A DNA stretch of 64,000 bases from Octopus vulgaris (Eukaryota), in assembly GCA_951406725.2 (NCBI GenBank), contig OX597833.1, positions 73,284,001 to 73,348,000 of the forward strand, in the 5' to 3' direction. The notes under the pieces were generated by a model that saw nothing but the letters and a program-made list of their open reading frames with translations, did not search any database and was not told where the DNA came from. The position numbers and the translations under genes are program-made. This document shows, one piece after another, positions 4,791-63,100 of this stretch (position 1 is its first letter; the number at the start of each line of letters is the position of its first letter).

Positions 4791-4907
4791 CATATATACC
4801 ACTATACATAAATACATTTGCGAAACAAAGTGATAGCAATAGAGCATAAGGTCAGTCGAGGCGGCCGTTGAACATGGCATTCTATCACTCAGACAACATC
4901 TGCTGAA

Positions 4908-5007
4908 NNNNNNNNNNNNNNNNNNNNNNNNNNNNNNNNNNNNNNNNNNNNNNNNNNNNNNNNNNNNNNNNNNNNNNNNNNNNNNNNNNNNNNNNNNNNN
5001 NNNNNNN
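4908..5007. other. Assembly gap (100 N)
   Basis: Run of N; contiguity across it is unproven. Confidence 1.
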
Positions 5008-7107
5008 ATCTACTAACACAAACAGAAACCGGCTCCCTAAAAAGAAAAAAACACTCATCAGGCGCATCAAAAGACTCAACAAACAAAATCAACCAATTAA
5101 AATATTCCCACATACAACATCCAAATTCAACAACAATGAAAAGGCTAGAGCTGGAAAAACTTCATCTACAGAACGACATGAAAACCTCCATTGAAAATCA
5201 AAGAGCTGTGGAGGAACAGTGGGTAATCAAAAACATCAAACAGGGCCCAAAAGTGTTCTATTCTTATGCAAATAAGCATAGAACCACTGTCTCACCCATT
5301 GGGCCATTGATTGATGATAACGGCATTCCCCAACACGATGCTAAAGAAATGGCAGAAATACTGCAGAAATAATATTGCTTTGTCTGATATTGACACAAGA
5401 GAAGCGAACGAAGTTGACCCTCAACATAAAATCTCAGACATAACCTTCACTGCCACTGACATCACAGCAGCAATAAATGAGATCAAATACTACTCTGCTG
5501 TAGGCCCTGATAGATTCCCTGCTAGTCTCCTGAAGGAATGTAGACACCAACTTGCAGTCCCTCTGACCAACCTCTGGAGAAATTCGTTAGACGCAGGTTA
5601 TATACCGAAACAGTTTCTATCCCAGTCAGTCATCCCGGTTTTCAAACAGGGAAACAGATCCCTCGCACTCAACTATCGCCCAATCTCACTCACCTCCCAC
5701 ATCATCAAAGTGTTTGAAAGAGTGTTAAGATCAAGGATAGCTGACTTCCTGGAGACCCACAAACTCCTAAATGCAAATCAGCATGGCTTTCGCTGAGGCA
5801 GGGACTGTCTAACACAGCTCTTACACCACATTGAAGATGTACTCAAAGCCTTGGGAACAGGTTCGAACTCTGATGTCATATATCTTGACTTCAGTAAAGC
5901 GTTCGACAGGGTAGACCATAATATCCTACTCTCAAAATTGGCAAATGTTGGAATCCGTGGAAAAGTTCTACACTAGATCAAGTATTTCCAGGCGAATATA
6001 ACACAACATGTTGTAGTTGATGGAGTCCACTCAAGCCCAGCATAAGTCACCAGCGGTGTCCCCCAGGGGACTATTTTGGGTCTGCTACTCTTCATAATTT
6101 ACATAAACGACCTTTCCAGTGTCGTACATTACTGCAAAGTGAAAATATTTGCTGATGACACTAAGCTCCAGCAAATCGTCAATGAAGAAGCAGACCGAAC
6201 TCAACTCCAGTCTGATCTATATGCTGTGAGTCAATGGGCACACAGAGACAAAATGCAACTGAACAAGGGAAAATTTGAGTTGATGCATTTTGGAAGAAAT
6301 TCCTCAATAAAAGGGGAACCGCTTACAGCCTCTAACAATATCAGACCTGGGTGTAATTGTTGATGACGATCTCAGTTGGAGTGCACACATCAACAAGAAG
6401 GTCGATATAGCACGTAGGATGAGTTCCTGGATCTTAAGAACTTTCCGGTCCAGAGAACAAGGTGTCATCATACCACTTTTCTCCTCCTTTGTACGGCCAC
6501 ACCTCGAATACTGCTGCCCACTGTGGTCTCTTCACACAAGACAAAACATCTCCAGAATTGAGTCACCCCAGAGGGCACTCACTAAACGAATTGAAGGCAT
6601 GGCTGCTGTCGATTATTGGGATCGCCTTAAAGCCTTGAACCTTTACTCCTCCAGCATCGCCGTGAGCGGTACATCATTTGTACGATGTGGAAAATATACC
6701 GCCAACTAAGCCCAAACGACCTAAACATTAGCTTCAAGGTTCATCCAAGACTTGGACCACGGGCTATACGTCCCCTGCCCAATTCAAGATCACAACATAC
6801 ATGTACACTGCAACATAATTTCTTTTCCTCAACAGGCCCTGCCCTATTTAACATTGTCCCGAAAGAGATCAAAGAGGAACAGGATCCCATCAACTTTAAA
6901 CGGAGTCTGGATAGATTCCTTCAAGGAATACCAGATAAGCCACCCATAATTGGATACAACTCACCCAACAAAAACTCACTACTTGAATGGACCATAAACA
7001 AAACTTGACTTAAACAGGATTCAAATAATCCTATCAGGTGGTGCTATTAAGTTAGACATGGCCTGGACCAATCTTTGGTCGAAACATATCAAGGTTTATC
7101 TAAGTTT
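5008..7107 (+). mobile_element. CR1-group LINE, ORF2 (RT) with stops and frameshifts, 3' end present
   Basis: '[17 protein letters not shown]', 'QHGFR', SGVPQG-type motif, 'FADDTKL', 'RPHLEYCCPLWS'. Confidence 0.9.
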
Positions 7108-7319
7108 ATATACAAACATACAAACATGTATATACAAATCTATATACAAACATATATACAAATATATATATACAGACATATATATACAAATATATATATA
7201 CAAACATATATATATATATACAAACATATATACAAACACATATATACAAATATATATACAAACATATATACACAAATATATATACAAACATATACATACA
7301 AATATATATACAAACATAT
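7108..7319. repeat. Compound (TA)n/CAAA microsatellite
   Basis: Repeated tatatatacaaa/catatatacaaa units. Confidence 0.9.
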
Positions 7320-7920
7320 GACCCTCTCCGTAACCTTCATTACCTGATCCAACAGCTTGATACCTCTGTATTTATTTGTATCTAAAGCGTCACCTTTACC
7401 TTTGTAGCAGTTGACTATTATGCTGCTACACCAGTCATTGGGTATGACTCCTTCGTGTATCAACTGGTTAACTATACGGGTGACTAGGCTATAACCAACA
7501 CTGCCAGATATTTTGAGCCTCTCTGCAGTAATTCCTGATGGACCTGGGGCTTTCCCTGTCTTCATACTTCTAATTATCTTATCTACCAAAGAACTGTCAA
7601 CTCGGATAGCTGGTCCCTCAGTTGGGTCGACATTCGGCAGACTCTCTTTCTCCCATTCATTGTCTTTATTCAGCAACCTTTCATAGTGGCGTCTCCAAAC
7701 CTCTCTCTTTGCAGCCACATTTAGCGCAAGTGAACCATTATCCATGCGAACACATTTCTCTCCTACCACATCACGATTCTCTCTCACACACTGTCTTGCA
7801 ACACGAAATATCTCAAGTCTTTTGTCCTCACGGCGCAGAACATTGGCAAATTTTTTCTTATCTGCTTCTCCTATGGCTAAATAAACCTGCCTCCTAGCTT
7901 CCCTTCTGGCAGTCTGACAC
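7320..7920 (-). mobile_element. RTE-clade LINE ORF fragment (linker to RT start)
   Basis: 'MKTGKAPGPSGITAE...IPNDWCSSIIVNCYKGKGDALDTNKYRGIKLL'. A short inverted piece of the same region lies at ~7930-8010. Confidence 0.85.
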
Positions 7921-8298
7921 ACTTCACCCATATAGTTAATCAGGATATATAGAAAGGTATTATACCCAATGACTGGCATAGCAGCATTGTAGTCAACTGT
8001 TATAGGAAGACAGACGTTAAATGATGTTGATATATTTTTTAGTATACATAACTGACTTCTACACGTCCTTCATGGATGATTCTATGATCCACAAAAACAG
8101 ATGAATTATATCCAAAATGCTAATGTTGCTGCTACCAAAAGGTATTGAGGACTTGATGCTTTTTGTTTCAGTAGAGTTGCCCTTCCAACTATAATCATCC
8201 TTATTTCTTTTAAATCTCTGAATTATCACCATTATCCCATTGCATGACATTTTGAGTCTATTGGGTACCTGGAAAATGAATAAAACCAGTCGTGTGTA

Positions 8299-8640
8299 TC
8301 TCTTATTATAAAAGGCAGATTTTATCTGCCTCCCTTTGGGAGTTATACAAATCTACAATATAGGATTTCTTCAATTACAATTTACCTTGCATTTTTAAGA
8401 GTACAATGCATCGCGTCATGCCAGCTCCAGTTTTTAAAATTTAAACTCCAGTTAAGCAAAATTTACAGAAAACTCACATTCTGGTGTGTGTGTCAAATGC
8501 TTTTCTTAGTCTGGTTTACACCACACGCAAACGCACACACACAGTGGGCAACGAATAAAATGAAACTAATTCACTTACTGTAGTGAGTGATTCTTTCACT
8601 CTGCCTCCCACTTCTTCTTTCCACACAGACACGCAAATAT
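8299..8640 (+). mobile_element. Probable non-autonomous Helitron 5' part
   Basis: Starts A|TCTCTTATTATAAAAG, like the element at 9955; no 3' hairpin/CTAG seen. Confidence 0.35.
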
Positions 8641-8814
8641 ATAAATAAAATTGTAAGCTAACGTGCGTGTGTGTGAGTGGGTGTGTGTGGGTGTGCGCGT
8701 GTGTGTGTGTGTGTGAGGGTGCGTGTGTGTGTGTGTGTGTGTGTGCGTGTGCGTGAGTGTGTGACAGGAAAGTTTTTTTACGACGAATATAATACCTATA
8801 TCCAAGTAGCAGAA

Positions 8815-9160
8815 AGATAAGACAGTAAGGTGTGATTTGAGGGAGATTTGGCTGCTATTTCTACCATGTCTAGCTGCCATGTAGGGGTCTCCCTCATAGG
8901 CTCATACATACATATATATATACATAGATAAGACAGTAAGGTGTGATTTGGGGGAAATTTGGCTGCTATTTCTACCAGGTCTAGCTGCCATGTAGGGGTC
9001 CCCTCATAGGCTCATACATACATATATACATAGATAAGACAGTAAGGTGTGATTTGGGGGAGATTTCTACCAGGTCTAGCTACCATGCCCCCTCATTGGC
9101 TCATATATATATATACATACATAAGACAGTAAGGTGTGATTTGAGGGAGATTTGGCTGCT
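8815..9160. repeat. Tandem repeat, ~90-110 bp unit, ~3.5 copies
   Basis: 'ataagacagtaaggtgtgatttg' recurs at ~8817, 8927, 9034 and 9121. Confidence 0.9.
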
Positions 9161-9528
9161 GTAGGTCTGTTAGGCTTCTCATGTAAACTCAAGCTTTCTC
9201 ATGCCTTCAACATATGACCAAAGCAGAGAATGTATTCTTTTATTCTTCTGCTTTTTCCAGCCATTGGTCTGTGGCCATGCTGGGGCAATGCCTTGAAGAA
9301 TTGTAGTTTAATGAATCAACTCCAGTTTTATTTTTGTAAGCATTGTACTTATTCTATCTGTTTCCTTTGTCAAACCACTAGGTGACAGGGATGTAAACAA
9401 ACCAACATTCGTTGTCAAGCAGTGGTGGAGGACAATCACAAGCACAGACACGCACACACACACACACACACATACATGCATACACATATACACACATACA
9501 TACATATATATATATGTGTATATATATA

Positions 9529-9787
9529 TTGCAGCGTGGAAGGTGTTTGTAAGCCATTTAAGAAACACACAAAAACCGTTACATTCACTTCAACATTTAA
9601 ATTTAATTTGCCAAAATATTTTCGTCGCTTTGAGACCGCCACCTGTTCACTGACAAAAATATCGTGCTAACAGGTCGCGGTCTCAAAGCGACGAAAATAT
9701 TTTGACAAATTAAATTTAAATGTTGAAGTGAATCTAACGGTTTTTGTGTGTTTCTTAAATGGCTTATAAACACCTTCAACGCTGCAA
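9529..9787. repeat. Near-perfect inverted repeat (~119-bp arms, ~21-nt spacer), probable PLE pseudo-LTR pair
   Basis: 9529-9647 is the reverse complement of 9669-9787 with few mismatches; contains an HHR fold. Confidence 0.85.
9607..9657 (-). ncRNA. Minimal type I hammerhead-like motif, G3-C8 core variant
   Basis: UUUGUCA-GUGAACA-G-GUGGC(GUCGC in other arm)-loop-GCGAC-GAAA-AUAU-UU-UGGCAAA: 7-bp stem I, stem II, GAAA, palindromic stem III loop. Confidence 0.65.
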
Positions 9788-9954
9788 CTGTTTTCGTTCC
9801 AGCACACGATCTCAGATCAAGTCACTTGCTATGCAAGTACATCTCTGTAACTATATATATATTTATATATATATATATATATATAGTATATTGGTAAAAA
9901 CAGTAAGATAACAAAAGAAAGAAAGAGACCTCAATATTATGTAAATAGAGGAAA

Positions 9955-10349
9955 TCTTTATAGATAAAAGTGAGGTTGTGTGTCTGTCTCCTACGATTTA
10001 GATTCCTAACTACTCCCACATTTTGCGGTGCAGTTTAACCAAAACCGGGTATCTTATAGTCGTGATTCATATCGAGACCGTCTGGGTATTAGCGCGCGTC
10101 TACGATGAGTCTACGATTTATAAAAAAATTTACCATCAATTTTTCCCATTTTTAATCCATTTTTGACATATATAAGGGAAGTAACTCTCTAAAATTTATT
10201 ATTAAATCTCAGAACGTAAAAAGCTACAGTAACACCCCTCCCCCTTTGTGGTTAGCCATATTGAGATGGCTATTATACTTTACATCTCTAAAAATGCTTA
10301 TATAATTATTTCCCTTACAAACCCGAGCAACGCCGGGCGATACTGCTAG
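9955..10349 (+). mobile_element. Complete non-autonomous Helitron (395 bp)
   Basis: 5' TC, subterminal hairpin CCCGAGCAACGCCGGG, 3' CTAG, inserted between A and T, no TSD. Confidence 0.8.
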
Positions 10350-10362
10350 TGTGTATATATAT

Positions 10363-10500
10363 GAGTGGCTGTGTGGTAAGTAGCTTGCTTACGAACCACA
10401 TGGTTCCGGGTTCTATCCCAATGCATGGCACCTTGGGCAAGTGTCTTCTACTATAGCCTTGTGAGTGGATTTGGTAGACGGAAACTGAAGGAAGCCCGCC

Positions 10501-10551
<51 letters not shown>

Positions 10552-10700
10552 AGAGTTTGTGTATGTATATGTTCGTCCCCACCAACATCGCTTGGCAACC
10601 GATGCTGTGTTTACTGCAAAAGAGACCGATAGAATAAGTACTAGGCTTACAAAGAATACATCCTGGGGTCGATTTGCTTGACCAAAGTCGGTGCTCCATC
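10363..10700 (+). mobile_element. tRNA-type SINE, family 1 (internal (TA)n, LINE-like tail)
   Basis: A-box-like TGGCTGTGTGG and B-box-like GGTTCTATCCC; many related copies across the window. Confidence 0.8.
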
Positions 10701-10996
10701 AAAAAAGAGAGAAAAACACGTTTTCACTCTCTAAATATCGACTTCTTTCATAAACAACCAAGTTGATTTGTTATTGGGCTCCTAGACTGAACAATTGCAT
10801 GATCTTGTATGGATCTGAGAGTAATTTGACTGCTATTTCTAGCCACCCCAAGTTAGCCTTGTTAATCATGTGAACGTCTAAAGAACTGAAAGTTATTTTA
10901 ACAGTTGACAAACCAAATTCTAGTCAAGAACTCGTTTAAAAATTGCTGAGCCTTAACAGAAACCATTAACATTTGAAGTAATAGACTTATTTTTAA

Positions 10997-11037
<41 letters not shown>

Positions 11038-11185
11038 TGTGTGTCTGTTTGTCCCCAAACATTGCTACACAACGGATGTTAGTCTGTTTACGTCCCCATA
11101 ACTTAGAGGTTCAGCGAAAGAGATTGATAGAATAAGTACTAGGCCTACAAAGAATAAGTCCTGGGGTCGATATGCTCGACTGAAG

Positions 11186-11254
<69 letters not shown>

Positions 11255-12444
11255 CTGGAGCGCCGCCTTTAGTCGAGCACATCATACACAGCACTTCTTT
11301 GTAAGCCTAGTATTTATTCTAACTTGTTCTCTTTTGCCGAACCGCTAAAATACAGGGAGTAAAACACACCTCTATCGGTTAAAAGCATCAACAACTACAG
11401 TCAATCGAAGATAATGACCAAACTGTCTACCAATTCAGACACTCAAACACGCGGACAAACACAGAAATGAAAACAGTTACATACCTGCACATGCACAAAC
11501 ACACAGACATACACATATAGAAATGAAAAATACACAGTTACACATTCAAACTCTCACACTCACACACGCACAAACACACACACACACACACACACGCACC
11601 CACACACAGAAATGAAAACACAGTTACACAATCACACATAAAACCCTAACCCTAACTAGCACAAACATACAATTTATTCAGAATGTAAAGGGGCATTGGG
11701 TGCTTTGCACTCGCAGTTAGAATATCATCTCCCTCCACGCCAGTATGAGAATTTCTTTCATCCACTTGTGAAATTAATACATTGTCGACACATGACAAAA
11801 ATATGAGCAACATCTCAAGTCACTAAAGGTGCAATAAATTGAACTTATTTTGATTTAGTAGTTAGTGATCTCAAATGTGGGTATCTTAGCAATGGTCAGT
11901 GTCGCACACACACAAGCAAATAGAAACACTCAGTCGCTCACACACTCGCGCACACAGAAATAAAAACACTCACTCTCACACACACACACACACAAACACT
12001 GAAATGAAAATACCCACACTCACATAAATAAAAACAGTCCCACACTCACAAGGAGCCCCAATAGGTATATAAAAAAAGTTTCTAGTATCTTTCCTAGCCC
12101 ATAATTTATGATAATTGTAGTTCTAACAATAAATAAATACCTACTAATTCAGTACATCGAACATTACGTCCCCGTAAATTATCGGTTCTGCAAAAGAGAA
12201 CAATACGTTAAGTACTAGGAATACAAAAATAAGTCCTGGGGTCTATTTGCTCGACTAAATGCGGTACACCACAATTTAATAACAATAATATAATTATATG
12301 CAAGGTAAGTAAATCTATATGATATTTTGTAGTTATCTCACTAACTTACGGTGACGTAAACACATCAGAATCGGTTGTCAAGCAATTTTGAGGACAAAAA
12401 CGCAGACAGAAACATAGACACACACATACATATGTGTGTGCGTG

Positions 12445-13640
<1,196 letters not shown>

Positions 13641-15238
13641 ACCCAGAAGAATTCTTTGCCACTTTACCAGCGGCCCCAAAGAGACAAAAATTGAGTACAT
13701 CAACATCGAAGAAGATGATATCACACTAGCCATTGATGAGATTGACACAAACTCAGCTGCTGGACCTGATGGATTCCCAGCGATCCTTCTCAAATCGTGC
13801 AAACGAGCCCTTGCAAAACCACTACAGCTTCTTTTTCAGAGCTTTCTTGCAAGTGGTAAGCTCCCAGTCAAACTGAAAGAGGGGGTAATATGCCCTATCC
13901 ATAAGGGAGGTAGCAGAGCAGATGCTAAAAATTATAGGCCTATCTCTCTGACCTCACACATCAGCAAAGTCATGGAACGAATAGTCCGTAAGAAACTAAT
14001 CATGTTCCTTGAAGAAAATGACTTACTGTCTGACACCCAGCATGGATTTCGACCAGGTAGAGGCTGCCTAACACAGCTCCTGCAACACTATGACTGGGTG
14101 TTGAAACAGCTACTAAATGGCTCAAATGTGGATGTAATATATCTTGACTTTGCAAAAGCCTTTGATAAAGTCGACCATAATATGATCTGTCACAAACTGC
14201 GTGGTCTCGGCATAGGCGGGAAACTTGGAGAGTGGCTGCACAACTTCCTAAAAGACAGAAAACAGGCAGTTGTGAGCAATGGAGCCACCTCAGGGAAACG
14301 CAAATAACAAGCGGTGTCCCACAGGGCACTGTCTTGGGGCCACTGATGTTCATAGTGGCCCTTTCAGACATGCCTTCAGTTGCTACGATGACCACCCTTG
14401 CTAGCTATGCAGATGACACAAAAGTCTCCCACGCAATACAAAACCCTGAAAATATTGCGCATCTGCAACATGAGCTGGACACAATATACAGGTGGGCTGA
14501 GGACAACAACATGCAGTTTAATGCAGGTAAGTTCCAGGCCCTGCGCTACTGGCACACAAAGGTAAATGACGTGCATACTGGATACACTGGCCCAGGAAGA
14601 ATTGCAATCCCTGAGTCAAAATCAGTGCGTGACCTGGGCATTGACATGAGCAATGATGCATCTTTCCAAATGCATATTGCTAATCTGGTGATAAAATGCA
14701 GACGGCTAGCTGGATGGATTCTCCGAACTTTCAGAACAAGAGAGAAGGAGACACTGATGGTCCTATGGAAAACATTTGTCCTCAGCCGCTTGGACTACTG
14801 CTCCCAACTTTGGTCACCACACAATATAAAACAAACAGCAGAACTCGAAGCAACTCAGAGAAGCTACACAAAGAAAATCGTCTCAATGCGAAATGTCAGC
14901 TACTGGGAAAGACTGAAGGTATTAAACCTCTTCTCCCTGGAGCGGAGGCAGGAGAGATATGCAGTGATATACATCTGGAAAATCCTGGAGGGTCTTGTCC
15001 CAAACTTTGGCATTCAAAGTTACTCCAACCGCAGAACGGGGGGCCGCTGCGTGGTGCCAAGGATTCCAACATCACCATCAAAATACAGGTCCAGATACTG
15101 CAACAGCTTGGGTTTCAGAGGACCACAGCTCTTTAACATCCTCCCTAAATGCCTGAGAGACTTACATGGTGTGGATGTGGGTTTCTTTAAAACTAAACTG
15201 GATCTCTTCTTGTTGGGAGTCCCAGATGAACCTACCTC
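13641..15238 (+). mobile_element. CR1-group LINE family A, RT region, one frameshift
   Basis: '[17 protein letters not shown]', '[13 protein letters not shown]', 'SGVPQGTVLGPL', 'YADDTK'. Truncated at both ends. Confidence 0.92.
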
Positions 15239-15364
15239 ATATCTGTATATATATATATATATACCAATCTATCTTCTTCGAGCACATCGTCAGCAGCACT
15301 TATTCTTTTCTGCCGAGCCGCTGAAATACAGGGAGTAAAACACACCTGTATCGGTAAAAACATC

Positions 15365-19849: not shown

Positions 19850-21056
19850 CACCTCGGGTGAGTAAGGGGGCGTAAACCAGATGACCTTCCTATTTCTATT
19901 ATTCCTTTTCCTTATTGTTGGGCTGGTGATAGGTGTATATTTTATTTTTTGCTAAAACCACTATCTTTTAAAGCTTTATTATAAACTGGGGCAACGCTAT
20001 TGAAGATGTCCTCATTAGATGAGAGGCTAGAAATCCTCTTACTAATATTTTTAACTAAATTTTTGAATACTATAGGGGGATGGCATGAACCTACATTAAT
20101 ATAACTTAGTCTATCATTGGGCTTCCTATAAGGCTTATAAATATTATTATTAAGATCTAAGGAAACGTCAAAGAAATTGACAACCGTCAGGTTAGTGTCT
20201 ATAGTTATACTAAGTCCGAAGTGTTTCATTAACTGGATAATATCCTTCCTAAAACGATCTTGTGCTGGTCCATTTGTATTAGCTGTTAAGGCGAGGGCAT
20301 CATCTTTGTAGATGGCGAAATGTACGTTAGGGAATGTCTTACCGAAGGTATCTAGGAGAAAGAGTCCAATTAGATCACAGATGCCTGCCCCATCATATGA
20401 ACCCATGCTCACATCGAAAGCGCCCTCCGTGTCGGTGTTTTTTACCCACTTTGCATTCTCACTGAAAAGTAATGTCTTTCTAGCATGGAAGATTATATCC
20501 TTATCATTGGTACTAATTTCTATGAAGTCACTAGCGAAGATTAGGGCTTTATCTAGCAGTTCTTTAGAGATAGAGGCATAAAAATCAACAATATCGAATT
20601 GTGTAAACCTCGCTTTTTTCTTATTCTTAATAGCTTTAAACCAGTCTACGACTTCTATACTATTGGACCATTGCACTAGCCTAGTATCGGTCTTAATTTT
20701 CGTATTTATTTTATCTAAAATTTCTTTGCTAATAATCCCTAGTTCTGACTTGGCTGGGTTGATAAGCCTACATTTAGGGTTGGAAAGGAAGTTTTCTTTG
20801 TGGTCTTTAATAGTAATAAAGGCCTCTTTTTGGGGGAGGGTTTCTATTTTTTTATCTAATTTAAGTTTAGCGGCGATGACGCTAGCTTCTTTATTAATTT
20901 CGTTATATGTCTGTGCCCTAGCCTTAGTATAATTATTAATGATGCTGTTGTGTAAGAGTTGTGTGTATTTGCTGTTATCTACCAGGTATAAGTTCTTGGT
21001 TTTATCCGAAAAAAGTGCTTTTTTCTTGGAGCTTTTTATATGATCAATATCTTTTT
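19850..21056 (-). mobile_element. Penelope-like element reverse transcriptase (372-aa open segment 19942-21060)
   Basis: 'KDHKENF..NPKCRLINPAKSELG', 'FDIVDFYASIS', 'FDVSMGSYDGA', 'YKDDAL', 'YRKPND...S.HPP'. Confidence 0.88.
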
Positions 21057-21498
21057 TCAATTTATGTTGGAAATTGTTAAAAGACTTACGAAATGGCTTA
21101 TCTGGAACAGCAGCTTAGACCCTACCACATGTCTAAATACAAGGACAGAGCTTTTCGGATCATGCCCACATGTGACTAAATTTCTGTTATGTTTTTGGTC
21201 CCCTAAAGAAAACGGATAGAATATGCTTTCTGTGTTATGTCCCAAGAAGATTTTATATATTTTTATATATTTTTATATATTTTTATGTATTTTTATATAA
21301 TTTTTATGACGAAAAATGCGAGCGATGTATAAGTACGCAGGCAAAGCAGAGTTATAACAGAGTAACTTCCCTTCATTTTTAACGGTATTTTTTCATAACG
21401 TTTTCAAATAGCCAGATAACCGAAGAGATGGTGTTGTGGATTTCCACTTCGGCATCTGAAACTCAGAGTTTTATCTTGACTACCGAGTAATGTAACAT

Positions 21499-25069: not shown

Positions 25070-25570
25070 TGTGTCTGGGGAGAGTCTTTCTCTTTTAGTG
25101 CCTTATTATTAAATACACACTCACCAGTAAAAATTCAAGGAGTGATATTAGTAGAGACCACAGCCCATGGAGAACTAGCCCTTAGATTTAGAAAAGCTCT
25201 GAAAGAGACCAAACTCAACATTAAAATTGTTGAAAAGCCAAGGAACTCCATCAGGTCACAATTATGAAGGACATGCCCGTTTAAGAATACCATATGCACA
25301 ATTGATAACTGCATGACATGTAGAATTAGCCCTGGTATTAACTGTAGAACTCGAAGTGTAGTTTACAATATAAGATGCATAGAAGGTGCTTGTAAGGACA
25401 TGAACATGATGTACATAGAGGAGATGTCTAAGAGCATTGCGGAACGGATAAATGAACATCTAAGACAACTTGACGACAGAAAACAGTCTTCTATACTCTA
25501 CCAACATGCCAAAGACCACCATGGAGATAACTTGGGTCAACTTGACATCCGCATCTTATCTAAGCACCCA
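25070..25570 (+). mobile_element. PLE GIY-YIG endonuclease fragment with upstream Cys cluster (Neptune-like)
   Basis: 'CMTCRISPGINCRTRSVVYNIRCIEGAC...MYIEE...ERINEH'; paralog at 45300-45830 has YIGE. Confidence 0.75.
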
Positions 25571-26469
25571 GCCCTCATCCCTGCTTTTCAATGCTAAACC
25601 CGATATAAAACAGTCATCAACACTATAAATAAACCTGTTCAATCTCTACCCTCCTCATCATCCCAAATCCTAACCCCTAGTTCAAACTTTGATCTCTTAC
25701 TTGACTATTCTCTCTAAAAACCCTTCACAAATCCTCAAGCTGACCCTAATATAGACTAAACTCTGAAAAACAATCCTAACAGCAAACCCACAACAAAATA
25801 AGAAAAACCACTTACCTTTGGCCATTTGGGATCTATAATACAAGGCATGATATGCAAACAACAAGCAAAATATCAACCAACACTTGAAAGTCAAGTTTTA
25901 TCTATGTGTCGAATCATGAAATACACTTGTTTAATAAATACAGTTGTCCTTACATTTACACAGTACATTGCTTCCACAAGTCATCAAACTAATCATTCTC
26001 ATGCGAAATCAATTGTTTTTATTTATAAATAGAAACAAATTAATTATTGAAATTAATATAAGAAATACAATTAACGTGTATGTGTGTCATCATCATTTAA
26101 CATTCGTTTTTCATGTTGTCATGGGTTGGACTATTTCACACTATCTGAGATGAATTACTACACGTACATCTAATGTCTGTTTTCACATGGTTTCTATGTC
26201 TGAGAAAAGTTTTGGTAACACTGACACTAGTAAAATTAAAAAGTAAATTTCAAGGATGAGTGGACTGCTAGTAGTGAGAGAGGTGGCTTCATCCTAACCT
26301 GTAGTATGATAGAGAGACAGGCAGAGGTGTGTCGCTGAAGAGAAACTACATGGCCACCCTGCATATATGTATGTATATAGGTAGACATCGATTAGAGCGC
26401 TTTCTCATTGCTAATATGTTAACATATGCTTGATGTGTGCTTTAAAAATTAAGTGCTTGCACTGGCACT

Positions 26470-36096: not shown

Positions 36097-38248
36097 GTCA
36101 TAAAGAACAAAATCCCCAGAGAGAGGAAAATTCTAATGAGACGGCGTACAAAAATCTCAAATCGCCTAAACAAACAAATTGAAAGCAGTGAAAAGTCCCG
36201 CCTGAAAATGAAACTGTTGGAAATTGAAAAATGTCTGCAACTCTCCCATGAAAAGGAAAGAGCAGACAAAGAAGCCTGGGATATAGACAACATAAAATCT
36301 AACCCCAGAGCTTTCTACAGGTATGCCAAAGAAACAGCTACGGTGCACTGTAGGATAGGGCCACTCCTTGAAAGGGATGGCACACTCACAGGAAGTCCAA
36401 TGAGGGTAAGTGAAATACTAAATGAGCAATTCAAGAGTGTTTTCACCCCACCCCTTGGGCATTTCCAAATCAGCAATCCAACTGACTTCTTCACCACTGC
36501 AGATATGGGGTCAGAGGCGGCGATGATTAATTACATCAATATAAAAGAAGACGATGTAATAAAGGCAATAGATGAGATGAAAACAAACTCAGCTACTGGC
36601 CCCGATGGATTCCCGGCAATCCTTCTAAAAGTATGTAAGAGAGTCCTAGCAAGACCACTGCAGTCTCTCTTTCAGCGCTTCCTTGCAACTGGCAAACTTC
36701 CAAGAAAACTGAAGGAAGGTAAAATATGCCCTATTCATAAAGGAGGTAGCAGAGCGGAGGCCAAGAACTACAGACCTATCTCTCTGACCTCACATATCAG
36801 CAAGGTCATGGAACGAATAGTCAGAAGGAAACTAATCACCTTCCTTGAAGAAAATGACTTGCGGCCTGACACCCAACATGGTTTCCGACCAGGAAGAAGC
36901 TGCTTAACTCAGCTCATACAACACTATGACTGGGTGCTGAAACGACTGCTCAACCACTCAAATGTGGAAGTGATATATCTCGACTTTGCAAAGGCCTTTG
37001 ATAAAGTCGATCATGGAATGATATGTCACAAACTGCGTGATCTTGGCATAGTTGGAAAATTGGGAGAATGGCTTCATGACTTTCTGAAGGATAGAAGTCA
37101 GGTGGTAGTAGCCAATGGGGCCACTTCCATTAACACGCAAATAGTGAGCGGTGTTCCGCAGGGCACTGTTTTGGGACCACTACTGTTCATAATGGTCCTC
37201 TCAGACATGCCCTCAGCCACACAGAGAGCCACGATCACAAGTAATGCAGATGATACAAAAGTTCCACAGGCAATACAGAACCCTGAAGACACTAAGCACC
37301 TGCAATGTGAGCTGGACAAAATATACAAGTGAGCTGAAAAGAATAGCATGCAGTTCAATGCTGAAAAGTTTCAAGCTTTATGCTTTCAGCATGCAAAACT
37401 GAATGCATTACCCAATGAATACACTGGACCCGGAGGGATTGCAATCCCAGAGGCACAATCAGTGCGTGACCTGGGTATTCACATGAGTGATGACGCGACC
37501 TTTCATGTACATGCTGCTAAACTGGCAATGAAATGTAGACGGCTGGCCGGATGGATTCTTAGAACCTTTTGAACAAGAGAACAAGAAACCATGATGGTCC
37601 TCTGGAAGACACTTGTCCTAGGCCACTTTGACTATTGCTCTCAGCTATGGTCACCATCCAGTGTCAAGTTGATCACAGAACTTGAGGCAATCGAACGAAG
37701 CTACACGAAGATAGCCTCTGTGCAGCATATAAGCTACTGGGAAAGACTCAAGAGATTAAAGCTCTATTTCTTGGAGCGTAGGCGAGAAAGATATGCCATA
37801 ATATATATCTGGAAGATCCTGGAAGGACTTGTCCCAAACTTTGGCATCGAGAGTCACACAAATGCCAGAACCGGGCGCCACTGCGTGGTACCAAGGACTC
37901 CAAATTTGCCATCAAGATGTAGGGCAAGATACTGTGATAGCCTGGGTTTCAGAGGCCCACAGCGCTTCAATGTCCTCCCGAAGAACCTGAGGGACCTGCA
38001 TGGTGTAGATGCGGATGTCTTTAAAGTAGGACTGGATCTCTTCCTGTCAGGTGTCCCGGATGAACCAACTTCACGGCAGGAGGTGCAGATGAGGGCAGCT
38101 GCATCGAACTCTCTCATGCACCAAATGGCAGTTGCTAAAAAGCATTCGTGAGGTAAAATCATGTAGCAAACCAAATGGCGGTGCCCCAGCATGGCCACAG
38201 CTCATGAGCTGAAACTGGAAAAATCAAAATCAAAATCAATCAAAATCA
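36097..38248 (+). mobile_element. CR1-group LINE family A, 5'-truncated, intact 3' tail
   Basis: ORFs 36136-37332, 37348-37572 and 37591-38151 are one frame broken by two TGA stops. RT motifs present; tail GGCGGTGCCCCAGCATGGCCACAGCTCATGAGCTGAAAC + (AAAATC)n. Confidence 0.93.
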
Positions 38249-45242: not shown

Positions 45243-48200
45243 TGTCTGGGGAGAGTCGTTCTCTTTTAGTGCCTTATTATTTAACACACTCACCGGTAAA
45301 AATTCAAGGAGTGATGTTTATAGAGGCCACAGCCCATGGAGAACTAGCCCGTAGATTTAGAAAAGCTCTGAAGGAGACCAAACTCAACATTAAAATTGTT
45401 GAAAAGCCAAGGAACTCCGTCAGGTCACAATTATGAAGGACATGCCCGTTTAAGAATACCATATACACAATTGATAACTGCATTGTATGTAGAATTAGCC
45501 CTGGTATTAACTGTAGAACTCGAAATGTAGTTTATAGTATAAGATGCATAGAAGGTGCTTGTAAGGACAGGAACATGATGTACATAGGGGAAATGTCTAG
45601 GAGCATTGCAGAACGGATAAATGAACATCTAAGACAAATTGACAACAGAAAACAGTCCTCTATACTCTACCAACATGCCAAAGACCACCATGGAGGTAAC
45701 TTGGGTCAACTTGACATCCGCATCTTATGAAGCACCCAAAAGACCCAACACTCAGACAAATACGGGAGTACGTCGTTATAAATGAAACTTCCCCAATATT
45801 AAATAGGAAATATACACAATAAGTACCATACCTCCATACCCACAGTTTACGCAGGTAGAGTAGAATAGTTAGTGGACTGTTAGGTAGATAAATGTATGTA
45901 TGTGGGTGTAAGTGTGTATGCATGCCTTTTTTTTAATCATTATTATTTTTTGTTTGTCTTTTTGTTTTTGTAATATTTTTTATATTTATTATTTTTTATA
46001 TATTTTTTAAATTTTTTATTTACTTATTTATTTATATTTCATTTTTATTTATTTTTTTGAAATTTATGTATGTAAGCATTTAGATATGTAAATAAACAGA
46101 TCAACATACAGACGGATAGTTACATAGGTTACAAGAACAGACACATATGGATCCACGGATCCACACATAAAGATGCACATCCATACATACAAACATGGTA
46201 TATAGTTACATAGCACACACACAGATATGCACACACAAGGAGACAGAGGTGCATACATATACAAACATATGCTCACACACACATACATACATCTACTCGA
46301 AGCGATAAGATTCGTTTCAGCTTCGCATGACTGCTTGGTACTAGGCGACTTCAACGCTCCCACGATCGATTGGCCCGCATCAATTTGTACAACATCTTCC
46401 CGGTTCGGCCAGGCCCTTCTTGACGTGGCTGAAGATTGTTTTCTATCGCAACATGTTGAATATCCGACAAGGCATCGGTCTGGGCAGCAGCCATCTATGC
46501 TAGATCTGGTATTCTCCCGCTATCCAAGATCAGTGTCAGACGTATCTGTGTGCGCCCCTCTTGCCAGGAGTGATCATGCGGTCCTGAAGTTCGTCATGCA
46601 CACAACTTTTTCCACGCCCACGATTACTTCGCTGCCACGTAGAGTCTTCTCTGCAATTAATCTTGAAATTCTAACCGAGGCTTCCGCGCTTCTGGACTGG
46701 CGATCCCTGATGACGTTGTCCTCAGTTGACGAACTATGGTCATCCCTCAAAGCATATGTAATCTGTTTGACTGACCAGGCAGTTCCCGTTGGGCTTCCCA
46801 AGAGGAAGAAACACAAGCCCTTGGTGACGAAGAAGGTTAAACGAGAACGTCGACTCAGAGATATTGCTTGGGCTGAATTCAAAAATCTGGATTCGACTGC
46901 AGCTTTTGAGGTGTACAAAACTCAACGAGACCTAGCCGTGAAAATTGAAAAGAAAGAACGCTTCAGTTATGAATACAAAATCGCGGCAAATGCCAGTAGC
47001 AATCCAAAAACCTTCTTTGCCCATGTCCAGCGGAATTCCCGCTTGAACAACCAGATTGCAACGTTGGTAGACTCAAAAGGCGTATCGATTGAGGACCCTT
47101 ATCAACAGAGTCAATTATTTGCCGAGGCTTTTTCAACTATTTTCAAACAAGATGATGGTCGTGAACCCCCTCCATTTGATAGATCGGTACCTCCAATGCT
47201 TCGATTGATCATCACGCGGGACGAAGTCAAACGTGTTATTCAAGGCCTCGATGTCAACAAGGGTCACGGCCCTGACGGCATACACCCACGGGTTATCAAA
47301 GCGTTGGCTCCGGTCATCTGCGAGCCCTTAACACGACTATTCAATATGTCATTGGCGACGGGTGTTATACCTGCAGACTGGAGAACAGCGATAATCTGCC
47401 CAATTTTCAAGAAAGGGAGCCGCGAAGACCCGCTTAACTACCGACCGGTTTCCCTTACATCAATAATCAGCAAGATGTTCGAAACCATCCTTAAGAAAAG
47501 TATGATGCTCCACCTCCTAAACACAGCCTCGATCACTGATTCCCAACACGGCTTCGTGCCGAAGAGATCATGCTTGACCAACTTACTAGTAATGGGAGAA
47601 TTGGTGACGCGCACCCTCGATGATAGTGATGCTGTTGACATCGTTTTATTGGACTTTGCCAAAGCTTTTGACTCGGTAAACCACCGCCTACTACTTGTCA
47701 AGCTTCAAGCATATAGTTTCCATCCGGATATTGTACGATGGGTTGGTGCCTTCCTCTCAGATCGCTCCTTCCAAGTTCAAGTTAATGGTTCGCGGTCCGA
47801 CGTCTCCAGTGCGAGCAGTGGTGTGCCTCAAGGTTCAGTGCTTGGGCCCTTGTTGTTCTTAGTCTTCATAAATGACTTGCCCGACGACCTCACGCAACAC
47901 ACCCTTCTATTTGCCGACGATATCAAACTGGTCGCTCCTCGCGGTAGTATAGAGGATCTTCGTCGATGCCTCCACCAAATTTGGAAGTGGTCTAACGATT
48001 GGGACCTGTGTCTGAACGTGTCAAAGTGCTGTCATCTGCCTGTCGGCTCTACTCCTGCAACTCAACTTGATTTCGACCCGGGTCGTCTGCTGCTGGAGAG
48101 GACCGATCAGGTAAAGGACCTGGGTATCTTGGTGGATTCCTCCTTTTCGCCTTCGGCCCAGTGCGTCCATGCTGCCGACAAAGCGCGCGGAATTCTGTTT

Positions 48201-49148
48201 TTGATTCGACGGTCATTCGGAATGCTCACAGCAGCCATATTCCTGCCACTCTATGTCACGCTGGTGAGACCCATATTGGAGTATGGGATTCAAGCCTCTT
48301 CTCCTTATCTCCTCAAAGACATACAGCATCTCGAAAGAGTCCAGAGGCTGGCTACCCGCATGGTTCATGGTCTCAAAAATTTGTCCTACGAAGAAAGGCT
48401 GAGGACGCTCGACCTTTATTCTCTTGAAAAACGCCGCCGCCGTGGTGATCTCATTCTCGCCCACAACATCATAAGCGGGAAGTGTAACCTCTCGAAAGAG
48501 CTGTTCTTCACTCCTGCTCCGGAGCGTCGGCTGCGGGGTCTTTCCGAAAAGCTCTACCTGCGATGATTTCATCTCAATCGAAGGAGAGGAGCTTTCTCCG
48601 TCCGGGTTGCGGTCCGTGGAACAAGCTGCCAGACGAGATGGTGAAGATGCCGACGACCGCTTTGTTCAAAGCCTCCCTGGACCTCAAGTGGCCTGAACTC
48701 TTTACATGAACACCACCCTGTACTTAACTCCATGTCCCCCTAAATGGCCTTGCTATTTGCTTTTGAGCCAAATTAACTAACTAACTAACTAACTAACATA
48801 GAAAATACACAAACACGGACATACAAGCACATAAATATGCAGGATACGTACATACAGATGCACACACATACATACATACATATGCATACACACACACATA
48901 TATATACATACAGATGCAAACACATACATACGTACATGTATGCATGTATAGGCACACACACACACACACACACTGACCCACATGCATGCGCACAAACAAA
49001 CAAAAAAGGAACGGACAGAGTCAAGACTATTGAAAAGGTTGCAAGAAGCAATAAAAATTTTAGAAAATAAAAATAAGAAATAAGTGGAAATTTTTACCGG
49101 TGAGTGTGTTAAATAATAAGGCACTAAAAGAGAATGACTCTTCCCAGG
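45243..49148 (+). mobile_element. PLE remnant with inverted termini and a nested CR1 insertion
   Basis: 45243-45305 is the reverse complement of ~49087-49148; GIY-YIG coding remnant 45300-45830; degenerate HHR at 49027-49063. Confidence 0.65.
46293..48797 (+). mobile_element. Young CR1-clade LINE family B, 5'-truncated, ~755 codons open
   Basis: APE C-half ('LVLGDFNAP', 'LDLVF', 'SDH'), full RT ('SGVPQGSVLGPLLF', 'FADDIKL'), late TGA at 48564-48566, (CTAA)n tail. Confidence 0.95.
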
Positions 49149-58120: not shown

Positions 58121-59330
58121 AGCAAGGAAAAATTGTAAAAATGCAGAATGCTAAATTGAAAGAAAATTTTAATGAAATGAGAAATTGATAAAATATATAA
58201 ATATATATTTATTCAAACCGGTTTTCGTCATAATGTGACTTATCAAGAATAGTTAGGTAAAAAAAGTTTTTTAAAAATGAGAAAGGGGAAAAAAGAAAGT
58301 TGCATTGTTTTTTTCAAAAGAATAATAATATGTACAAAAATTAAAAAATAAGTACTCCGATACATTGTGAGTTCGTTGTGTATCTTGAGTTTAATGATTG
58401 TTCACGAAAAAATTATCTTGAGGTATTAGGATCCAATGGGATTGAGACCATGTGTTGTTTGGTTTAATTAAGGATGTTGGCAAAACAGGAAGTAGTAGTA
58501 ATTGTGGTTCTTCAGTTCCTGTGTTGTGAATAAGGGGAGACAACTCTTTTGAGTTCTTCAATTTTTGTTTCTCAAACTCCCCTGCAATAAAGGCTGCTAA
58601 TAAACCCCAAATCATAAAATTATCATTTTAGCTTCATTTGCATTATCTTTTTTATATACTTGTTTGTTAACTTAACTTTCAGATTTTAACACTTTATTTA
58701 TATTATTTTCTAATTATATAAATTTGCATAGACCAATTTATAGTTACATTTCAGATTGTTATATCATATATAATAAAAATGATAGTAATAACAACAATAG
58801 TAAAAATGATATTTAAAGAATATAAGTTTTAGCTTGAAGTGATGAATGCATGGTATCCTTATATATTTGTGTTAGTCCATCCATGAAGAATGAGGTAGAA
58901 AAAGGAAGTTTGATCAACGAGGAGTTTGCATATTAAGTTGTGTTTGGAATTTTTCAATAAAGAGATTCTCCTTGTTAATTCTCTCCTGTGTGGTGATCCT
59001 GTCTTTACATTGGTAGAAGGGGAATATATAGAATTTGGGGTTTAAGTCTTTAGCGCATGAGTCTATGTGGTCACTCAGTGGAATTTGTCGGTATTTCGGG
59101 AGATTTATTTGTTCTTTATGCACCGCATAAAGAACTTTTTTTTACCTAACTATTCTTGATAAGTCACATTATGACGAAAACCGGTTTGAATAAATATATA
59201 TTAATATATTTTATCAATTTCTCATTTCATTCAAATTTTCTTTCAATTTAGCATTCTGCATTTTTACAATTTTTCCTTGCTTATCATTTCTCCACGTGCG
59301 GTCAACACAACCCCACCATTTATTGATCTC
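58121..59330. mobile_element. PLE remnant bounded by ~150-bp inverted repeats
   Basis: 58121-58270 is the reverse complement of 59133-59281. Internal minus-strand GIY-YIG C-terminus 'HKEQI...SDHIDSC...ERINKENLFIEKFQTQLN'. Confidence 0.8.
59151..59192 (+). ncRNA. Minimal type I hammerhead motif, U3-A8 core variant (identical copy on - strand at 58210-58251)
   Basis: UAUUC-UUGAUAA-GUCA-CAUUA-UGAC-GAAA-ACCGGU-UU-GAAUA. Confidence 0.75.
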
Positions 59331-60354: not shown

Positions 60355-63100
60355 TCAGGTCACTTTCGAGTGCTACTGGTAACATGTAACCCAGAACAAC
60401 CTGTTGCATGGTCGGGTCGTCGGCGACTAAACCGGCAACACCACCAAACTTGCTTGGTGAGGAGGGTGTTTATTGGACACCCTGCGGGATGAAAAACAAA
60501 ACCCGTTAAAGGGCGGAGGAACTCTTGAGAGTTAACGACCAACCAATAAATGTTTTTTTTCTTTTTTTTCTTAGGGCTTAGGGCTGTATCATGCGCGGGG
60601 ACATAGAAATAATCGGACTGAATACCCGATCGCGGTTAAACCATTGGGAGTGAAGGACTCCTAGCCTTTGTTAGGGCATCCTTCTAGGAGAAGGTAACTC
60701 AGGTAACTGGGATAACTCCGACATAAAACCTGCGGCTCAGTGGTTATCGATGATGTTGACTTGTTTTTCTTTTCGGATTATGGCTGCTGTTGCTTAGTGA
60801 GTGGGATTGACTCAGTGCACAACCTTTCCTCACTTTAAATAAAATCTTTTTGCACAGGTATTGCACGATAACTACATTGGATTTATTAAAGTGATTAACT
60901 AATTCATGATTTTTGATAGTGCTGTGAGTCTCAACTGAATGGCTGGCTGTAGGCTTAAAAAGCAAAAAATCAATGATGTACCAAAACAATATAAAAATAA
61001 ATGGCAGTAAGGACTCTGGAACCACATCAGCTGAAAGAGTCTGGCCCGGCAGGAGCTCCAGAGCTTCACAGTCTGAACCCGGCCGTCATCATGCTACTGT
61101 GATAGAACCAAAGAAAATAGTGAATATAGGCTGTTGGAATGTACGGACACTGCTTGACCACAAGTCCTCTGAATGTCCTGAAAGGACTGCGCTTGTTGCG
61201 AAGGAGCTTCAACGCTATGATCTTGACATCGTTGCTTTATCTGAGACGAGATTACCTGGAGATGGTCATCTTACAGAATCTTGGGGAAAATATACATTCT
61301 TTTGGAAAGGGAGAGATGAAGAGTTTAGAGGAGAAGCTGGAGTGGCATTTGTTGTTAAGACTACTCTTGTGGACAAGTTGGAAGAATTCCCAATCGGAAT
61401 TAACGAGCGTCTTATGTCCATGAGAATTCCTTTGGCAAAAGGAAATTATATGACATTGGTGAGTATGTATGCTCCAACTATGTGCTATGCTGATGACGAA
61501 AAACTTTCTTTCTACCACTCTTTGTTTGGTAAGATATGGACTATTGAATCTGTACATGAGGACTGGAGAGACGCAGTAATGGTGGTCCTGTATAAGGGAA
61601 AGAGCAACAGGATTGATTGTGGTAATTATAGGGGAGTATCATTGCTGTTTGCTGTAGGAAAGATTTTTGCAGGATACTTCTGGATCGTCTGCTGAAATAC
61701 ATTGCAGATTGTGTTCTTCCAGAAAGTCAATCTGGCTTTCGTGCGGGACGTGGCAATGTTGATATAATCTTTTCAGCTAGACAGCTTCAGGAAAAGTGTG
61801 TGGAACAGGCTCTGGATTTGTATCAGGTTTTTGTCGATCTGACAAAAGCCTTTGATACCGTCAATAGAAAAGCATTGTGGAAAGTCCTCCAGAAACTTGG
61901 GTGTCCTGAAAAGTTCCTTGCTTTGGTTAGGTCTTTTCATGAAGACATGAATGGTAGGGTGAATGTTAGAGGGAAGATGTCGGAGCCCATTTCAATACAA
62001 AATGGAGTGAAACAGGGATATATTCTGGCACCGACCCTATTTTCCATATATTTCGCGATGGTGTTCTGTATTGCATTCAGAAACTGCAGATACGGTGTTT
62101 ACGTCCATTATGGAACCTCTGGAAGCATATTTAATATCAGGCGCCTTGCTGCAAAAACAAAGATATTTACCTCTATCATAAGAGACCTTTTGTATGCTGA
62201 TGATTGTGAGTTATTAGCACACACAGAGATTGATATGCAACACATTTTGAATGCATTCTCTGATGCTTGCACTGCCTTAGGATTGACAGTCAATCTCAAG
62301 AAAACTGTTGTCATGCATCAACCTGCTCCTGGCAAGCAGTATAGTGTACCAAATATCTATGTGAATGGTAAACGACTTGATGTAGTCGATCAGTTTGTCT
62401 ACTTGGGAAGCACTATTAATAGATATGGCAATGTGGATGATGAAATTCCATATAGAATTAGGAAAGCAAGTATTGCTTTCGGAAGGCTAGAAAAGCGCCT
62501 CTGGAGTCGGCGAGACATATGCAGAAGGACAACGATAAAGGTGTATAAAGCATGTGTGCTCCCTTCTCTTCTCTATGCCTGCGTACGTGGGTCACATATC
62601 GATACCACCTTAAACAACTGGAGCGTTTCCATCAGATGTGCCTCAGACAGATCTATGGCATTAAGTGGAAGGACCGCATCAGTGATCTTGAAATACTCGA
62701 AGGCTCTCGGTGTGAAAGTATAGAAGCTCTCGTGTTAAAGCAAAGGCTCGGATGGAGTGGTCATCTGGTCAGAATGAAGGAATCAAGGATGCCAAAACAA
62801 CTCTTTTATGAAGAGTTAGTTAAAGGAGAAAGACCTCCACATAAAACAAAAACGAGGTATAAGAACTTGCTGAAGGCTTCCTTAAGAGATGCTCGCATCT
62901 CTCCTGACACATGGGAAGGCATAGCTATTGATCGTAGCAGGTGGAGAAGGATTGTGCATGAGGGGACAGCCACGTTTGAGAAATCTCGAGTTGCACATGA
63001 GAAAGTAAGGAGGGATGTCAAGAAGAGCATCGCTGTTACACTTCCAGAAGGGAAGGGTCTTCCTTTGATTTTGACATGCAATGTCTGTGCAAGACCCTAA
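60355..63100 (+). mobile_element. RTE (BovB-like) LINE with 5'UTR and internal deletion
   Basis: 'IGCWNVRTL', 'DIVALSETRLPG', 'SMYAPT', then abrupt join to 'DWRDA..LYKGK..CGNYRGVSLL'; 'FVDLTKAFDTV', 'GVKQG..LAPTLF', 'LYADD', 'RLGWSGHLVRM'. Confidence 0.92.

Follow-up and report, generated by a model that had tools for sequence, protein, structure and literature searches.

A stretch of 64,000 nucleotides from Octopus vulgaris (contig OX597833.1; hereafter the window, numbered from its first letter) contains a long palindrome whose minus strand can be read as a hammerhead ribozyme with a G-C pair between positions 3 and 8 in place of C-G. The locus raises the question whether this is a natural counterpart of a double mutant made in the laboratory, which element supplied it, and whether RNA of this form still cuts itself.

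The palindrome and its hammerhead motif

The 259-bp palindrome reported in the first-pass annotation is present, with arms at 9529-9647 and 9669-9787 that are 119 nt each and 96% complementary, five pairs being mismatched; single-strand folding of 9580-9700 gave z = -11. The parts of the motif that had been named (stem I, core, stem II and GAAA) were all located on the minus strand at 9657-9607. The core does not match the consensus CUGANGA...GAAA: it reads GUGAACA, with G3/C8 for C3/G8, which is the reciprocal C3G and G8C change noted earlier, and it retains U4, G5, A6, A9 and GAAA. Two details had been missed: there is an extra G at 9643, and in this copy stem II is interrupted by a G.G mismatch at 9640. 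The G10.1-C11.1 pair is present (G9642-C9624), helix I comprises 7 bp, the 15-16 segment is palindromic (AAUAUU), and the UH at the cut site is U16.1-U17. An Rfam scan of window positions 8000-12000 in E-value mode returned no hammerhead match, and only low-scoring hairpin and microsatellite matches. The features are as follows, the parts of the motif being read from the sequence.

8299 to 10349, plus strand: non-autonomous Helitron-type element of 2,051 bp that carries the palindrome, with an A/TC 5' end, a CCCG..CGGG hairpin and a CTAG/T 3' end (the slash marks the element boundary)
9504 to 9528: (TA)n microsatellite, left flank of the Penelope-like element (PLE) insertion
9529 to 9668, minus strand: left copy of the PLE terminal repeat (pLTR), with the complete hammerhead and a short 3' end without tail
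9607 to 9657, minus strand: minimal type I hammerhead with a G3-C8 core (from sequence, fold prediction and pair counts on 11 chosen sequences)
9657 to 9651, minus strand: stem I 5' strand, UUUGUCA
9650 to 9644, minus strand: core, GUGAACA
9643, minus strand: extra G between A9 and stem II
9642 to 9638 and 9628 to 9624, minus strand: stem II, GUGGC/GCGAC, with the G.G mismatch at 9640
9623 to 9620, minus strand: GAAA box
9619 to 9614, minus strand: A-UA-U-U-U
9620 to 9615, minus strand: self-complementary AAUAUU
Between 9614 and 9613, minus strand: predicted cut, after UUU
9613 to 9607, minus strand: stem I 3' strand, UGGCAAA
9669 to 9787, plus strand: right pLTR copy, 5'-truncated inside the core (it starts at A6, AACAG), stem II intact
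9759 to 9851, plus strand: first 31 codons of the PLE ORF, the ATG lying inside the pLTR (same start in the full copy L101)
9788 to 9851, plus strand: PLE "tail", in one arm only; 63 nt separate the two 3' ends of the family
9852 to 9886: (TA)n microsatellite, right flank of the PLE insertion

The PLE insertion thus occupies 9529-9851 and consists of a longer minus-strand copy (9668-9529) adjoining a core-truncated plus-strand copy with its tail. The two pLTR copies meet between 9668 and 9669, and the 21-nt "spacer" of the palindrome is what the left copy has in excess at its 5' side; this copy starts about 15 nt 5' of the numbering origin at G3 of the core, the preferred 5' end of the family. 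The right arm does begin inside the core at 9669, with AACAG and a perfect GUCGC, but, contrary to what had been supposed, it gives no independent support for C8, because both arms belong to one family. The earlier statement that the palindrome holds no coding sequence fails at 9759-9851, where the PLE ORF begins. The two arms also differ at two sites (9549 and 9611) that mark subfamilies.

Source and spread of the palindrome

Thirty loci were chosen with a 35-nt motif pattern that had 1,182 exact matches in the genome (reversed control, 0), far from a chance occurrence. Thirteen were Helitron-borne and 17 were short insertions in their own right whose inverted 5' pieces differ, these insertions being often tailed and located in (TA)n. 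In one of them (L050/L061) a fragment of a GIY-YIG ORF lies upstream, and a search with the protein from this locus, in which 150 of 4,050 candidates were scored, recovered open frames of up to 1,025 aa. A G3-C8 pLTR was present within 1.5 kb in 26 of 30 loci chosen by protein similarity alone, most having a different loop II. The 1,025-aa frame (L099) carries a YVDD RT, a DKG-like motif, a CxxxCxxC linker and, at its C-terminus, a GIY-YIG domain with two cysteines; Pfam scored the GIY-YIG domain at 25.4 bits against a cut-off of 22.6 and matched no RT family in this protein. One locus, L101, has the complete arrangement pLTR-ORF-pLTR, with two motifs on the same strand separated by 4,261 bp, an inverted third motif and the ATG in the pLTR, and the N-terminus of its ORF is 37% identical over 246 aa to a sister family described below (family B). 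The link to a PLE ORF that had been put up for checking is therefore borne out by the 26 protein-chosen loci and by L101. This family, here called A, has pLTRs, inverted 5' copies, a tail and microsatellite targets, and resembles the EN+ PLEs of the Neptune/Nematis type as described in PMC8557442 in these same features (with (TA)n targets) as well as in the RT, the CX2-5CxxC linker and the C-terminal GIY-YIG with two cysteines; the likeness is one of domain layout, not of an RT tree, and the tail is 63 nt versus 30-40 in those elements. A tail has been described for PLEs in both PMC8557442 and PMC11167929. In identity and history, the palindrome very probably derives from the terminal repeat of an autonomous PLE encoding RT and GIY-YIG.

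The many identical copies of this particular palindrome were spread by a Helitron. The best 30 genomic matches to the palindrome have both flanks in common (30 of 30 loci), mostly from about 8297 to 10362. The 3' ends of the Helitron read CTAG/T in 51 of 51 cases; its 5' ends read A/TC in 38 of 48 and A/TA in 6, the other 4 being head-to-tail junctions, and the subterminal hairpin has a predicted energy of -6.2 kcal/mol. We take an A/TC start, a subterminal hairpin and a CTRR/T end to be the end features of Helitrons, and the element is like other non-autonomous Helitrons in its A/TC start, hairpin, CTAG/T end, head-to-tail arrays and captured cargo, with nothing unusual about it. The centre of the palindrome has 623 exact genomic copies. 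Stem II is intact in 99 of the 100 listed among these 623 Helitron-borne copies, and the stem II mismatch in the window therefore marks a rare sublineage. Because these are Helitron copies, their identity is uninformative on selection for a ribozyme, and we rejected identical palindromes as a sign of such selection. In itself the copy in the window is unremarkable debris of transposons.

Several observations concern the Helitron and its surroundings. Three to four copies of a repeat of about 110 bp lie inside it (window 8796-9160), their number varying between Helitron copies. Elsewhere in the genome (G000:C2:206158693-206186229), thirteen same-strand matches, most of them about 2,180 bp apart, a spacing that matches the Helitron period, probably form a head-to-tail Helitron array. 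The Helitron copy of the window sits in a segment of more than 9 kb (at least 5008-14438), to which five places on other contigs are 93-99% identical. The entire block is therefore duplicated or mobile in its own right; it contains LINE RT fragments at 4872-5796, 7140-8069 and 13700-15338.

Two other origins for the palindrome were considered. It had been proposed that it is a non-autonomous pLTR-only unit, and a separate element of this kind, retrozyme- or SINE-like and amplified as a unit via RNA, would account for the many pLTR-only copies and their preferred 5' end; PLE-derived retrozymes do exist in animals (bioRxiv 10.64898/2026.07.22.740005). We consider this very unlikely. The pLTR is that of the autonomous family, the inversion junctions vary in 17 of 30 loci while the other 13 are Helitron-borne, and the identical palindromes have Helitron flanks in 30 of 30 loci. 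No head-to-tail pLTR arrays were seen among the loci examined, and the layout of non-LTR retrozymes, head-to-tail units each with a hammerhead, was not found: copies are single, in inverted pairs, ORF-flanking or Helitron-borne. The other origin, a MITE or fold-back DNA transposon with inverted repeats that just look like a hammerhead, is suggested by a near-perfect 259-bp palindrome in (TA)n and is hardly tenable, given that the ends of the palindrome are not those of the mobile unit (the flanks are common to 30 of 30 loci), that one arm has a tail and the start of a PLE ORF, and that covariation with sister families fits the hammerhead fold.

Fixation and polarity of the G3-C8 pair

An 18-nt G3-C8 core had 6,616 exact matches in the genome (control, 0). 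When positions 3, 7 and 8 were left free, G3-C8 was kept in 95 of the 100 matches listed and C3-G8 in none; the G3/C8 pair of GUGAACA, the fixation of which had been left to be checked, is nearly fixed in the family. G3-C8 was likewise found in 49 of 54 motif matches at 56 protein-chosen loci, which overlap and are not independent. Loop II varies between subfamilies, and stems and core are constant. The first-pass annotation had raised the possibility that other copies lack G3/C8 or the stem pairings; G3-C8 is near-fixed and the stems of the family form are intact, with minorities that carry a mismatch at 3-8.

The polarity of the change was read from relatives. The best named relative of the family A protein, P0001 (labelled as an Octopus vulgaris protein), is 55% identical in amino acids and defines sister family B in the same genome; this family has frames of up to 1,312 aa, many of them intact, and a pLTR homologous to that of family A, and its motif is C3-G8 in 30 of 30 loci. 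In a search with a G8 pattern, 8 of the 100 matches listed were C3-G8, six of them being related pLTRs in the same TGTCA..GGTCGC setting. Of seven stretches fetched for these further C3-G8 families, 3 yielded ORFs, and these were ORF starts only. We aligned 11 chosen sequences (three of family A, one of B, six related and one unrelated), leaving out L171 and L192, C3-G8 matches without stem II or GAAA. The 3-8 pair was C-G in 8 and G-C in 3 of these sequences and was never unpaired, the three G-C rows representing one evolutionary event. Stem II was paired in 96% of cases, with three pairs changed on both sides, versus 30-52% in sliding controls. Since sister PLE families with homologous pLTRs keep C3-G8, G3-C8 is a derived natural covariation, and the view that it is the natural counterpart of the C3G/G8C double mutant is upheld. 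Contigs of four presumed-RNA runs cover the motif stretch (contigs cannot show ends or strand). In contigs from four runs that carry the labels of four other organisms, two of them thinly covered, no change of at least 5% was seen at positions 3 or 8. A metagenome scan for relatives with flanks gave 59 pattern matches, none of which was confirmed, so that no distant relative's hammerhead could be read. Family B has a further departure from the consensus core: it reads CUGAUGC, that is, A9C, in 30 of 30 loci (L110, L106-L135) of what is apparently a young family.

All but the 3-8 pair is standard for PLE minimal hammerheads. The motif is like the minimal type I hammerheads of PLEs described by Cervera and de la Pena (2014; PMC4209133) in its place in the pLTR, in the extra nucleotide between A9 and G10.1 and the G10.1-C11.1 pair, in a palindromic minimal helix III and a U17 site (common in Fig. 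S3 of that paper), and in the occurrence of opposite-strand motif pairs and many ORF-less copies; the inserted nucleotide is G here versus H in their consensus. None of the 56 representatives in their Fig. S3 starts with G3, an absence that is biased because the descriptors fixed C3-G8 or U3-A8. Natural U3-A8 variants are known (Perreault 2011, PMC3088659; Schistosoma Cercyon PLEs, PMC4209133) and are likewise cases of natural 3-8 covariation, in one PLE family with about 1,300 matches. U3-A8 would require two transitions and could pass through a U.G wobble, whereas G3-C8 would require two transversions through a mismatch. The changes are identical to those of the engineered C3G/G8C mutant (PMC11167929, PMC8495972, PMC3884650), but here they are natural, present in more than 6,000 genomic copies and known from sequence. 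Our literature search, which was incomplete, found G3-C8 in laboratory mutants and in no natural hammerhead; earlier cases may exist.

The mismatched form G3.G8 also occurs in the genome. The variants at position 8 were G in 39, T in 44 and A in 17 of the 100 listed of 400; at a control C they were G in 13, T in 75 and A in 12 of the 100 listed of 138, and at position 3 they were C in 10, A in 62 and T in 28 of the 100 listed of 194. G3.G8 is therefore about 5-fold over the mutation baseline (Fisher p 5e-6) and C3.C8 is not in excess; a general C-to-G bias as the cause was rejected by two control positions. Approximately 230 copies carry G3.G8 versus 6,616 with G3-C8. Mean divergence was 4.6% for G3.G8 (25 copies), 4.6% for G3.U8 (13 copies) and 3.7% for G3-C8 (20 copies), differences that are not significant. 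Dispersed G3.G8 copies were found on all subfamily backgrounds, and with a divergence like that of G3.U8 this led us to reject one old lineage as their source, an explanation that we accept for a group on C16 only. This lineage has 47 exact copies, 38 of them on C16 and 35 in G000:C16:0.6-10.6 Mb (L266-L290). Nearly all of 30 examined have distinct 3' flanks, many retain the long 3' UTR, and in 8 of the 30 the G10.1-C11.1 pair is broken as well. Copies with the G3.G8 mismatch are predicted to be inactive; because the 47-copy lineage made dozens of separate insertions, jumps occur without an intact ribozyme. G8 may be a surviving intermediate, a recurrent reversion or a product of gene conversion. 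In L156-L185, the arms of several single palindromic insertions differ at position 8 (G8 versus C8) and at subfamily-marking sites; such arms may mean that an insertion drew on two RNA templates, or that it landed next to an older copy.

These mismatched copies bear on a different reading of the whole family, in which the hammerhead is a relic: cleavage would be unneeded, G3.G8 would have passed to G3-C8 by chance drift, and the stem-loop would be kept for another role (protein binding, promoter or leader) or owing to short divergence. The excess of G3.G8 and its independent insertions, some with a broken G10.1-C11.1 pair, agree with a relic, as does A9C in family B. Several results speak against it. 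Drift is an improbable source of two transversions that rebuild precisely the one Watson-Crick pair by which activity is known to be rescued; across subfamilies that differ in loop II, the GAAA, the UH site, the palindromic helix III and the remainder of the core are constant; and G3.G8 makes up less than 4% of copies, and of 28 sampled G3.G8 copies 0 belong to the youngest subfamily. We regard the relic as improbable, and return to further points in its favor below.

Predicted cleavage and the templates of short copies

Whether the motif could still cut was judged from folding models and published mutants. In the family form (L051, L105), stems I and II make up the minimum-energy structure with a probability of about 1 at 37 C, helix II having 5 bp; in one short construct stem I misfolds at 18 C. 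The cut is predicted after U17, which in L101 is computed to lie 56 nt before the ATG. In the window copy, by contrast with the family form, stem II has pair probabilities of at most 0.13 when folded on its own and of 0 within the 323-nt hairpin; the prediction for this copy is that it is inactive, dead cargo of the Helitron. The AAUAUU helix alone is weak (-0.2 kcal/mol), and the energy model does not favor a dimer (-28.8 versus 2 x -14.1 for two monomers). With the hammerhead of an anole Poseidon PLE, each single mutant abolishes cleavage and the C3G/G8C double mutant partly restores it (PMC11167929); partial rescue is reported in other laboratory work as well (PMC8495972, PMC3884650). The anole motif cut only when protein was present (PMC11167929). 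We lean slightly toward a family form that still cleaves itself, if weakly. Minimal hammerheads are described as having low activity (PMC4209133), which would also suit a relic, and so would the result that insertion of the anole PLE in vitro was unaffected by hammerhead mutants (PMC11167929).

The ends of short copies indicate which RNAs served as templates. In 88 distinct contexts, 58 lose homology 0-3 nt 5' of ATGCAG; position -1 is G in 39, position -2 is A in 34 and position -3 is G in 27, the source having C or T there. Of 237 arms, 84 start at -24..-12, a number biased by loci mostly chosen for holding the core. Because only 3 of the 237 begin near the predicted cut site, one of them explicable by microhomology in stem I, the arms give no clear sign that cut RNA served as a template; every inserted copy spanning the motif came from uncut RNA, another point that fits a relic. 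The preferred 5' end is preceded by CTAAC..TTTCTCAG. In long copies a branch-point/acceptor-like motif, CTAAC..TTTCTYAG, lies directly 5' of the hammerhead (L105:1361-1385, minus strand), exactly where short copies begin, and five long copies contained no convincing splice donor to match it. Many short copies begin with GAG rather than YAG, which suggests a capped start site or a splice junction. From the sequence, then, the fixed RNA 5' end would stem either from a capped start site or from splicing at a 3' splice site.

The explanation that we favor as likely is that the palindrome is a short head-to-head pLTR insertion, that the G3-C8 motifs of the family would dimerise and cut slowly, and that the window copy is inactive and Helitron-spread. 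In this explanation, two family motifs in an intact transcript would pair through AAUAUU, as in the double hammerhead proposed for PLEs, and cut slowly after UUU. A short copy would result if the RT, on a transcript that had not been cut, began at the tail site close to the 5' end and continued as far as that end; reverse transcription from the tail site has been described for the anole element (PMC11167929). Uncut transcripts of the autonomous element would thus yield the pLTR-only copies as by-products, the swap would be retained because source elements that persist for long are under weak selection for the 3-8 pair, and cutting would be dispensable for single jumps. More doubtful, though possible, is the fuller claim that a young, abundant PLE family has a natural G3-C8 hammerhead cleaving as a dimer and preserves the G3.G8 step as a mobile lineage. 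If true, the copies would record, like fossils, how the active site of a ribozyme underwent a compensatory swap by two transversions, and would provide a natural series (C3-G8, G3.G8, G3-C8 and A9C) with which to ask whether PLE hammerheads matter in vivo. What the hammerhead does for Penelope-like elements is regarded as unsettled (PMC8557442, PMC11167929). That the 3-8 pair was flipped and yet kept speaks for selection on the active fold, and the mobile lineage with the mismatch speaks against a need for cutting at every jump; with both in one genome, and canonical sister families as outgroups, the question is testable with a few short RNAs. Searches with descriptors in which CUGANGA is fixed can miss thousands of motifs.

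The window contains other traces of retroelements. Fragments of GIY-YIG ends at 25130-25573 and 45275-45810 (plus strand) belong to related PLE families, 44-55% identical to A and B, and a motif scan detected no hammerhead beside them. At 58246 (minus strand) and 59156 (plus strand), identical opposite motifs about 900 bp apart have a U3-A8-type core, TTGATAA, with GTCA/TGAC, GAAA and a palindromic ACCGGT, and are a candidate second PLE hammerhead variant. An open frame of 390 aa at 19942-21114 (minus strand) resembles a Penelope-type RT of another clade, with DKT and NP.CRLINP motifs, and is presumably Naiad-like. An open frame of 786 aa at 46206-48566 (plus strand) encodes a LINE-type endonuclease-RT, and further LINE fragments are located at 36097-38151 and 60928-63100.
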